NCBI GenBank assembly: GCA_965206595.1
Contig: OZ242214.1
Coordinates: 6,462,675 to 6,526,674 of the forward strand
Source of the DNA: Candidatus Latescibacterota bacterium
Lineage (GTDB): Bacteria; Latescibacterota; UBA2968; UBA8231
Length of the DNA stretch: 64,000 nucleotides
Direction of reading: 5' to 3'
The notes under the pieces were generated by a model. The model searched no databases and was not told the origin of the DNA. It saw nothing but the letters and a program-made list of their open reading frames with translations. Position numbers and translations under genes: made by a program. Shown one piece after another: positions 13,054-13,361 of this stretch; the first letter of the stretch is position 1, and every line of letters starts with the position of its first letter.

Positions 13054-13281
13054 ATGTCGCATCTTGCGAAGTACATCGTCGCCGTTCTGCTGGGCGCAGG
13101 GGTCCTGCTGGGCGGTGCATCCCTCGTGGACGCCCACTCCAAGAGTGAGAGTTGGTGGAGCCACTACCAGTACGCCCAGACCGAGAGCCTGTGCGCCTAC
13201 GAGTGCGCGCTGAAGAACCACGATAGTTACGACTGGGACTGCGATGATGATGGTGATCACGCATGCTCCTGCAGGTACTGA
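13054..13281 (+). CDS. Small secreted Cys-rich acidic peptide (75 aa; predicted mature ~48 aa, five Cys, DWDCDDDGDH tail)
   Basis: Strong RBS. Signal peptide MSHLAKYIVAVLLGAGVLLGGASLVDA|HS. First gene downstream of the sigma54 promoter; followed by a stable hairpin. Confidence 0.55.
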   Translation: MSHLAKYIVAVLLGAGVLLGGASLVDAHSKSESWWSHYQYAQTESLCAYECALKNHDSYDWDCDDDGDHACSCRY

Positions 13282-13328
13282 CTGCCAGGACTCGGAACCG
13301 CGCCCAGGCCTGCGCCCGGATGAAGAGT

Positions 13329-13361
13329 GCGCCAACGCCCTTGACCATGGGGCGTTGGCGC
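13329..13361 (+). terminator. 12-bp perfect stem-loop GCGCCAACGCCC-ttgaccatg-GGGCGTTGGCGC without U-tract; possible partial terminator or RNA-processing/stability element after the peptide gene
   Basis: Inverted repeat read directly; located between the peptide stop (13281) and the next ATG (13463). Confidence 0.35.

Follow-up and report, generated by a model that had tools for sequence, protein, structure and literature searches.

What is the short gene that opens a run of secreted carbohydrate-binding-module-like proteins in an uncultured bacterium, and what might its product do there? The question is raised by a 64,000-nucleotide (nt) stretch of a Candidatus Latescibacterota genome (assembly GCA_965206595.1, contig OZ242214.1, positions 6,462,675 to 6,526,674), hereafter the window, in which a 75-residue open reading frame (ORF) precedes three paralogous CBM9/DOMON-like genes (Table 1). 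We provide evidence that this small ORF is a genuine, conserved gene, well beyond what chance would give, and that it belongs to a small-protein family from uncultured Latescibacterota that is unannotated and new to annotation databases. As to function, we tentatively favour, at a confidence that stays short of even, an exported and disulfide-braced mini-protein that would serve as an accessory to the CBM9-like proteins and possibly bind metal at a His/Cys site, its abundance presumably favoured by a hairpin behind the gene.

Every feature that the initial annotation had claimed for the precursor is present, namely a strong ribosome-binding site, a signal-peptide-like N terminus, 75 residues in all and a 48-residue mature part with five cysteines (C47, C51, C63, C71 and C73 in precursor numbering; net charge -7). 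The AAGGAGG ribosome site also stands before nearly all family copies. The N terminus has the n/h/c layout of Sec substrates, with K6, a hydrophobic stretch at residues 7-19, a helix-breaking GG and the cleavage region GGASLVDA↓HS with small residues at -3/-1. The n-region charge, the h-region and the -3/-1 positions agree with the Sec and signal peptidase I pattern, and there is no lipobox. This call was made by inspection and conservation only, the layout and ASLVDA↓H being kept in alignments across the family, and it points to an export-type N terminus and a small protein that is probably Sec-exported. Public gene calls give the first paralog as 387 residues (window 13244-14407), starting inside the small ORF and running through the hairpin; we regard this call as an over-extension, as the homologues begin at the Met encoded at 13463.

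The earlier statement that the peptide has no recognisable family is right for Pfam and NCBIfam, in which none of 22 members has a match even at E <= 10, and no significant PDB sequence match was obtained even at permissive thresholds; it is for these reasons that we call the family unannotated. The ORF is nonetheless part of a conserved family. A word-indexed protein search returned six homologues at 53-76% identity, an exhaustive HMMER scan with the alignment of homologues retrieved 20 representatives at E < 1e-3 from 1.84 billion, and a hidden Markov model (HMM) scan of paralog-anchored loci added eight further copies on one 6.78-Mb Candidatus Latescibacterota contig. The family thus comprises about 25 members, and alignments of 22-25 of them were used to judge invariance. 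Pattern scans of GTDB species genomes and of Joint Genome Institute metagenomes yielded no small-peptide relatives, all relatives having been recovered by the protein searches and the scan of paralog-anchored loci, and the family appears rare. Apparent domain fusions among the longer matches were discarded, as they look like frameshifted or over-called ORFs. Against the most distant of the close homologues (related loci bear L numbers; this one is L006) the ratio of nonsynonymous to synonymous substitution rates (dN/dS, Nei-Gojobori) is 0.25-0.33, and all indels are in frame.

Conservation within the mature part is concentrated on cysteine and histidine. H37, C47, C51, H56, C71 and C73 are invariant in 25 mature sequences, Y49 is nearly so and C63 is semi-conserved. 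His makes up 8.8% of mature residues, stands as the first predicted mature residue in 21 of 25 sequences (as read from the alignment) and forms an HxH at 37-39 in many members. The acidic DWDCDDDGDHACSC tail, on which the first description had laid weight, proved not to be a family trait: neither the tail nor its acidity is conserved, and net charge in the family ranges from -7 to +3. We place the functional core in H37, CxxxC, H56 and CxC, and not in the acidic tail. The number of cysteines is odd (5 or 7) in 22 of 25 members and even in the other three, and the extra Cys shifts from subgroup to subgroup (about 33-38, 63-66, 70 or 74-78); with an odd count kept up at changing places, a spare thiol seems to be maintained in the family.

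The position of the gene is equally constant. Homologous small ORFs beside the paralog genes of related genomes, which the initial annotation had proposed to look for, are present, and the lack of conservation that would have spoken against the gene is not what was found. In all 15 lineages whose contigs extend far enough, the distant 7-Cys and 4-Cys subgroups included, the small gene lies on the same strand and directly ahead of 1-4 tandem paralogs of ~320 residues. The paralog family has undergone a great expansion in Candidatus Latescibacterota: >387 homologues are in the databases, and a single 6.78-Mb contig carries at least 24 loci. Its members have no significant Pfam domain, and faint CBM9_1 matches occur in 8 of 55. 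An AlphaFold2 (AF2) model of the first paralog (predicted local distance difference test score, pLDDT, 78) is matched by Foldseek to the CBM9 structures 7nwn (E = 2e-9) and 1i82 (template modelling score, TM, 0.80) and, more weakly, to NxrC and EbdC, heme-b gamma subunits with the same CBM9/DOMON superfold, and a CBM9/DOMON-like fold is predicted for the paralogs. All carry the invariant motifs DGDHSGG and WHDDP and, after a low-complexity linker, a conserved extreme C-terminal SWGRIKASLE that may be a sorting or docking signal. Dependence between the two families runs one way: the small gene is always accompanied by paralogs, and paralogs often stand without it.

Downstream of the cassette, the window as well as L006, L009, L010 and L011 has a PD40/TolB-like propeller gene, and L015 can be aligned over the PD40 region too. 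The product of this gene has 185 residues in the window against 294-310 in the related loci L006, L009 and L011, and the window gene is probably truncated in this strain. The three protein classes of the operon share a predicted first mature His, which is found in the mini-protein, in 55 of 55 aligned paralogs and in all five PD40 proteins (those of the window, L006, L009, L010 and L011); two other exported window proteins have Gln, not His, at this position, which can be compared with the Q-rule of Bacteroidetes for the first mature residue (PMC5837995). Such a His, specific to the operon, may mark its products for common processing or sorting, or may reflect a shared N-terminal-His chemistry.

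The small ORF was initially described as the first gene of a sigma-54 operon, and a -24/-12 element does lie upstream of it. aGGCACGcttaTTGC at 12979-12993 holds GG and GC in canonical -24/-12 spacing (TGGCACG-N4-TTGC), at the same position as in related loci. Another TGGCAC, further upstream at 12947-12952, was rejected as a promoter, having no correctly spaced GC. The pattern GGCA[CT][GA]N4TTGC has 13 matches in ~430 kb (window plus related loci), all on the gene strand and all immediately 5' of a small gene or of a paralog without one; the window alone has two (8087 and 12980) against 0.55 expected. The GG/GC is invariant in 6 close lineages and the flanks vary, and 9 of 10 copies keep 74-76 nt between the motif and the ATG, the exception being L014 with 83. 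Its motif, its spacing and the activator gene next door (itself frameshifted) argue that the 12980 element is a sigma-54 promoter.

The second window match, GGCACGccttTTGC at 8087-8100, precedes the upstream paralog, a gene that no small gene heads, at a distance of 74 nt from its ATG (8174). Between two sigma-54 units that point in the same direction, then, lies the activator gene. L006 has neither a sigma-54 motif nor a neighbouring activator and shows a sigma-70-like TTGACC-17-TATCAT instead. There, 5' of the small gene at 9871-9960, a tandem direct repeat of AACCTTGACCATCGAACTT (two copies) contains this sigma-70-like element, and the upstream neighbour is a HicB antitoxin gene, not an activator. 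As the module of small gene, paralogs and PD40 gene exists in L006 without sigma-54 control, it would be older than that control.

Two structured RNA elements flank the coding sequence. In the 5' untranslated region (5' UTR), a stem-loop of -19.1 kcal/mol (z = -3.2) occurs at the same place in 10 copies, distant paralogous ones included, with pair-preserving changes such as U-A to C-G in L013. Behind the stop codon, the hairpin that was initially given a 12-bp U-less stem is real, stable and indeed free of a U-tract; its stem is longer than described, at 15 bp, and spans 13327-13363. It folds at -31.4 kcal/mol (z = -7.6), as well as which none of 200 shuffles folds. A strong hairpin of differing sequence lies 3' of every family member, and L013 and L015, which have a window-type stem, show a compensatory G-C to C-G change. 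In L006, L024, L045 and L050 the equivalent hairpin is followed by a U-tract and is a conventional intrinsic terminator. The window hairpin would then be an atypical copy of a terminator-like element class, terminator/attenuator-like or 3'-end-stabilising, and the most economical reading is partial termination, 3'-end stabilisation or both, as a result of which the product of the first cistron would be the most abundant. Scanning 12500-13800 against Rfam returned nothing meaningful, and hairpin and 5'-UTR stem-loop are therefore not known RNA families.

Table 1. Features of the small-gene locus, in window coordinates (arrows mark predicted cleavage)
Feature	Position	Strand	Details
Upstream CBM9/DOMON-like paralog	8174-9157		no small gene ahead
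Sigma-54 enhancer-binding protein gene, divergent	9501-12711	-	Pfam Reg_prop/Y_Y_Y sensor, Sigma54_activat/AAA+, HTH_8
Sigma-54 -24/-12 element (putative promoter)	12980-12993	+	GGCACGcttaTTGC; 74 nt before ATG; predicted start near 13005
5'-UTR stem-loop	13010-13036	+	CCGGGGUAGCG...CGCGACCCCGG; between promoter and ribosome site
Ribosome-binding site	13042-13048	+	AAGGAGG; 5 nt 5' of ATG; read from sequence
Small ORF	13054-13281	+	75 aa; translation MSHLAKYIVAVLLGAGVLLGGASLVDAHSKSESWWSHYQYAQTESLCAYECALKNHDSYDWDCDDDGDHACSCRY
Signal-peptide coding part	13054-13134	+	residues 1-27, MSHLAKYIVAVLLGAGVLLGGASLVDA; predicted cleavage A27↓H28
Mature 48-aa mini-protein and stop codon	13135-13281	+	
GC-rich hairpin	13327-13363	+	perfect 15-bp stem, 7-nt loop; 45 nt after stop codon
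First CBM9/DOMON-like paralog	13463-14407	+	314 aa; signal peptide; mature HSGGRVYPI, C-terminal WGRIKASL
Second CBM9/DOMON-like paralog	14512-15489	+	325 aa; paralog HMM match; in paralog alignment
Third CBM9/DOMON-like paralog	15586-16575	+	329 aa; paralog HMM match; in paralog alignment
PD40/TolB-like propeller gene	16660-17217	+	185 aa; Pfam PD40 2e-16, weak NCBIfam TolB
Predicted first mature His	13135; 13559, 14611, 15685; 16738		H28 of mini-protein; paralogs (13559, ADA↓HS); PD40 (EAA↓HS)

Comparison with L008 and L009 shows that the locus is mosaic. The window is 95-96% identical to them over 9491-13223, and homology is then lost until 14477 (breakpoint segment 13223-14477, compared with L008 10176-10406). 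Given this loss, one exchanged segment, replaced by recombination or an indel, would take in the mini-protein's C-terminal tail together with the hairpin and the first paralog. Between window and L008 the signal peptide has a proportion of nonsynonymous differences (pN) of 0 and of synonymous differences (pS) of 0.08, and the mature part has a pN of 0.35-0.43, equal to or above pS in its middle segment. The mature N-terminal half comes in two types, HSKSE..WSHYQY and HSPP.SWYE..HEQ, both shared across genomes. Positive selection on the mature part was considered and not accepted as established, since in a mosaic locus with two allele types shared across genomes a high pN/pS is not proof of it.

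Upstream of the small gene, the divergent activator is split into two frames relative to the intact 1070-residue L009 ortholog (tblastn), and a DNA alignment places a 1-nt insertion, an extra T, near 11050 (about 11035-11060, minus strand). The same split gene call appears in two independent assemblies (L001 and L002), and the local activator may be a pseudogene in this strain. Its N terminus has no signal peptide or transmembrane segment and looks cytoplasmic. Two transposase genes at ~5718-6128 and 7153-7779, both on the minus strand (DDE_3 and DDE_Tnp_1 in the annotation of the identical locus L001), lie between heme-biosynthesis/AIRS genes and the upstream paralog, which suggests that insertion sequences have disturbed the region.

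The spacing of the cysteines offers a lead on fold. The window peptide reads C-x3-C-x11-C-x7-C-x-C, and C2-C6 of plectasin (sequence verified against 1zfu) reads C-x3-C-x10-C-x6-C-x-C. An AF2 model from a seven-sequence alignment (mean pLDDT 61, ~65-73 over the mature part) has the topology b-b-a-b-b and places C47 and C51 in a helix at 44-53 and C71 and C73 in the last strand at 70-74. The arrangement that defines cysteine-stabilised alpha/beta (CS-alpha/beta) folds, CxxxC on a helix and CxC on a strand, is thus seen in the part of the model with pLDDT ~65-73, and the disulfides are probably C47-C71 and C51-C73. The six-Cys framework of the defensins is absent from the window peptide, which has five Cys and no C1. 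Only the family member P0129 has all six, with an additional Cys 10 residues before CxxxC, at the plectasin C1 distance. Bacterial cis-defensins, described mainly from Myxococcota and other Proteobacteria and from few other phyla, have the six-Cys frame, and two-disulfide bacterial defensin-like peptides have been proposed as well (PMC11561630); five cysteines therefore do not exclude the fold.

Similarity searches gave the following for this fold. A core profile run against PDB sequences had the insect defensin 2e3e_A as its sole match (E = 2.1, Cys in register), and hhalign against seven verified defensins gave a probability of 4.5% and a pairwise E of 0.009, again with Cys in register. There was no hhalign match to plectasin alone, no Pfam defensin or toxin family match among the 22 members, and no Foldseek match for the low-confidence AF2 model of the mini-protein. 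We consider a CS-alpha/beta-like scaffold a reasonable reading of the model and the spacing, and membership of the cis-defensins unproven.

Drawing these lines together, the mechanism that we tentatively favour would run as follows. Transcription would start from the sigma-54 promoter ~50 nt upstream, and a stable short transcript would form, with the 5'-UTR stem-loop near one end and the 15-bp hairpin at the other and with partial read-through into the paralogs, so that the mini-protein is made in excess over them. The pre-protein would be exported through Sec and cleaved after A27 to a mini-protein of ~48 residues, its core braced by two disulfides in the helix-CxxxC/strand-CxC arrangement of CS-alpha/beta folds. 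This scaffold would present H37 and H56, to which most members would add an unpaired Cys (C63 here) and further His (H28 and the HxH). Outside the cytoplasm the mini-protein may act as an accessory factor for the co-transcribed CBM9/DOMON-like proteins and the PD40 propeller, and its His/Cys site may hold a small ligand, for which a metal ion is the likeliest candidate. The metallo-peptide and paralog-partner roles that had been suggested at the outset are still the best guesses; a metal site of His ligands plus thiol is our most specific proposal, with a tethering thiol and a defensin-like effector as serious rivals.

Several observations weigh against this mechanism. About two-thirds of the fetched paralog arrays have no small gene, nor do these arrays contain an alternative Cys-rich small ORF upstream, and a specialised partner clade was sought and rejected, as the paralogs that follow a small gene form no clade. 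That so many arrays lack it, and that there is no partner clade, means that the mini-protein does not serve as an obligate 1:1 subunit. Among the 22 members, neither Pfam nor NCBIfam (E <= 10) gave a metal-binding family or motif, and the variable position of the spare Cys suits a tethering or dimerising thiol at least as well as a fixed metal site. The first-position His, being common to all three protein classes, may be a tag and not a ligand. The defensin-like fold is without statistical support from the PDB profile, hhalign, Foldseek or the model (pLDDT 61). On the expression side, the window hairpin lacks a U-tract and was negative in a terminator scan, and the local enhancer-binding protein is frameshifted.

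The first rival holds that the peptide is a stand-alone defensin-like effector against competitors or a host (related metagenome-assembled genomes may be sponge-associated), its adjacency to the paralogs reflecting a shared regulon only. This reading, which we judge unlikely while taking it seriously, draws on the cis-defensin-like Cys framework with a predicted a-b-b core, on the presence of several family copies within one genome, on a precursor-like gene followed by a terminator-like hairpin, and on the contrast, between window and L008, of a highly conserved signal peptide and 5' region with a mature part that is fast-diverging or mosaic. However, the family shows no conservation of charge, with a strongly acidic peptide (-7) in the window, an invariant His pair is not a defensin feature, and the resemblance to defensins falls short of significance. 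In a diderm, a Sec signal by itself would take the peptide no further than the periplasm, and no immunity, ABC-export or secretion genes lie within 10 kb in four contexts. That the gene strictly heads the array in 15 of 15 lineages speaks for a functional link with the paralogs.

Doubtful to much the same degree is a metal-free structural adaptor, in which the spare Cys would form an intermolecular disulfide (as homodimer or tether) and the mini-protein would organise or anchor the CBM9-like and PD40 proteins in the envelope. The odd Cys count in 22 of 25 members and the varied positions of the extra Cys would suit a surface thiol, the small gene universally adjoins paralogs, and the common first mature His suggests a shared processing or sorting route. 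Yet no Cys is among the invariant columns of the paralog alignment, and hence there is no conserved pairing partner; three members have an even Cys count, and the adaptor leaves the invariant H37 and H56 unexplained.

We consider it very improbable that the gene encodes the precursor of a ribosomally synthesised and post-translationally modified peptide (RiPP), or a signalling peptide that is secreted, the leader being conserved and the core variable and modified or processed after export. Sec-exported Cys-rich RiPPs are known (the bufferins), the N-terminal two-thirds of the protein is conserved and the C-terminal tail hypervariable, and a hairpin follows the precursor-like gene. But no radical-SAM, YcaO, LanB/C/M, MNIO/DUF692, peptidase-ABC exporter or receptor kinase gene was called within 8-10 kb (Pfam families of called genes at L001, L006, L008/9 and L052), and the role is unlikely because such maturase, exporter and receptor genes are absent nearby. 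Additionally, the conserved part includes a folded-looking Cys/His core and not a mere leader, and the adjacent regulator looks cytoplasmic. The signalling role that had been listed among the early suggestions is accordingly unsupported, with no receptor kinase genes called within 10 kb in any context. To a spurious ORF, or a cis-acting leader ORF whose translation controls the hairpin, we give hardly any credence: the ORF is short, lies upstream of the hairpin and is overlapped by the 387-residue gene call, but that call is over-extended, conservation is seen at the amino-acid level (dN/dS 0.25-0.33, indels in frame), Cys and His are invariant across ~25 members, the ribosome site is strong, and the gap of 45 nt between stop codon and hairpin is too wide for ribosome-coupled attenuation.

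These findings define an unannotated small-protein family in an uncultured phylum, give it testable signatures in its two invariant His, its brace of four Cys and the spare Cys that recurs, and tie it to a large family of secreted CBM9/DOMON-like paralogs. If a defensin-like fold and a metal or partner function were both true, bacterial cis-defensin-type scaffolds would gain a new phylum and a role other than an antimicrobial one, and the family would offer a handle on the role of the expanded paralog arrays in Latescibacterota. We regard the locus as a well-characterised lead, not a resolved mechanism or discovery.

How, then, does the family compare with systems that are already known? Small periplasmic metal-binding proteins and metallochaperones include CusF, CopC and proteins with ZinT-type His-rich N-termini. 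Like them, the mini-protein would be exported, small and His-rich with a possible thiol ligand, and, as in histidine-brace proteins, its predicted mature chain begins with His. It differs in having no sequence or fold relationship to them, in a scaffold that would be disulfide-rich, and in a first-residue His that is common to otherwise unrelated proteins of the operon; no profile of the CopC, CusF, PCuAC or ZinT type matched any of the 22 members (Pfam/NCBIfam, E <= 10).

Operons such as that of the lantibiotic gene nisA, and those with pilin-type first cistrons, place a precursor or structural gene ahead of a partial terminator. As in these, a stable stem-loop comes after a first cistron that is short and strongly translated, and the product of the small gene would likewise outnumber those of the genes downstream. 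Here, however, the hairpin has no U-tract, the likely promoter is sigma-54 dependent, and behind the hairpin lie genes for binding-module-like proteins instead of enzymes of maturation or export.

Bufferins are Sec-exported, Cys-containing RiPP metallophores of gig/MNIO operons. The small gene shares with them a small Sec-type precursor, conserved Cys and the first place in an operon with exported partners, and a metal-buffering role is conceivable for the mini-protein. In contrast to bufferin operons, no MNIO (DUF692), DUF2063 or DoxX genes lie near the small gene, the protein has no DUF2282/BUF Pfam match, and its Cys pattern fits disulfides rather than thiooxazole.

The closest parallel in fold would lie with the cis-defensins (plectasin, the insect defensins and the bacterial classes I-V; PMC11561630). 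Both are small and have a signal peptide, and the family has a CxxxC in a predicted helix, a Gly-rich turn before a CxC in the predicted last strand and a C2-C6 spacing near that of plectasin. In contrast, most family members lack C1, which would leave the Cys equivalent to C4 unpaired. They carry a ~19-residue N-terminal extension with an invariant His and a conserved Trp, have a second invariant His after the helix and are often acidic. They also head sigma-54-driven arrays of CBM9-like genes in Latescibacterota, a genomic setting that is not known from any defensin described so far. A broader proposal, which we hold to be doubtful, is that the family is a hitherto undescribed, Latescibacterota-restricted class of the defensin fold that was repurposed, C1 being lost in most members and the invariant His pair gained, so as to create a His/thiol site active towards metal or in redox chemistry. 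The mini-proteins would then be abundant partners, akin to cofactors and acting outside the cytoplasm, of the greatly expanded CBM9/DOMON-like family, in a sigma-54-driven cassette marked by a first mature His as its own processing tag. Judged by its predicted model, the family would at the level of fold most resemble the cis-defensins, with clear departures from them.

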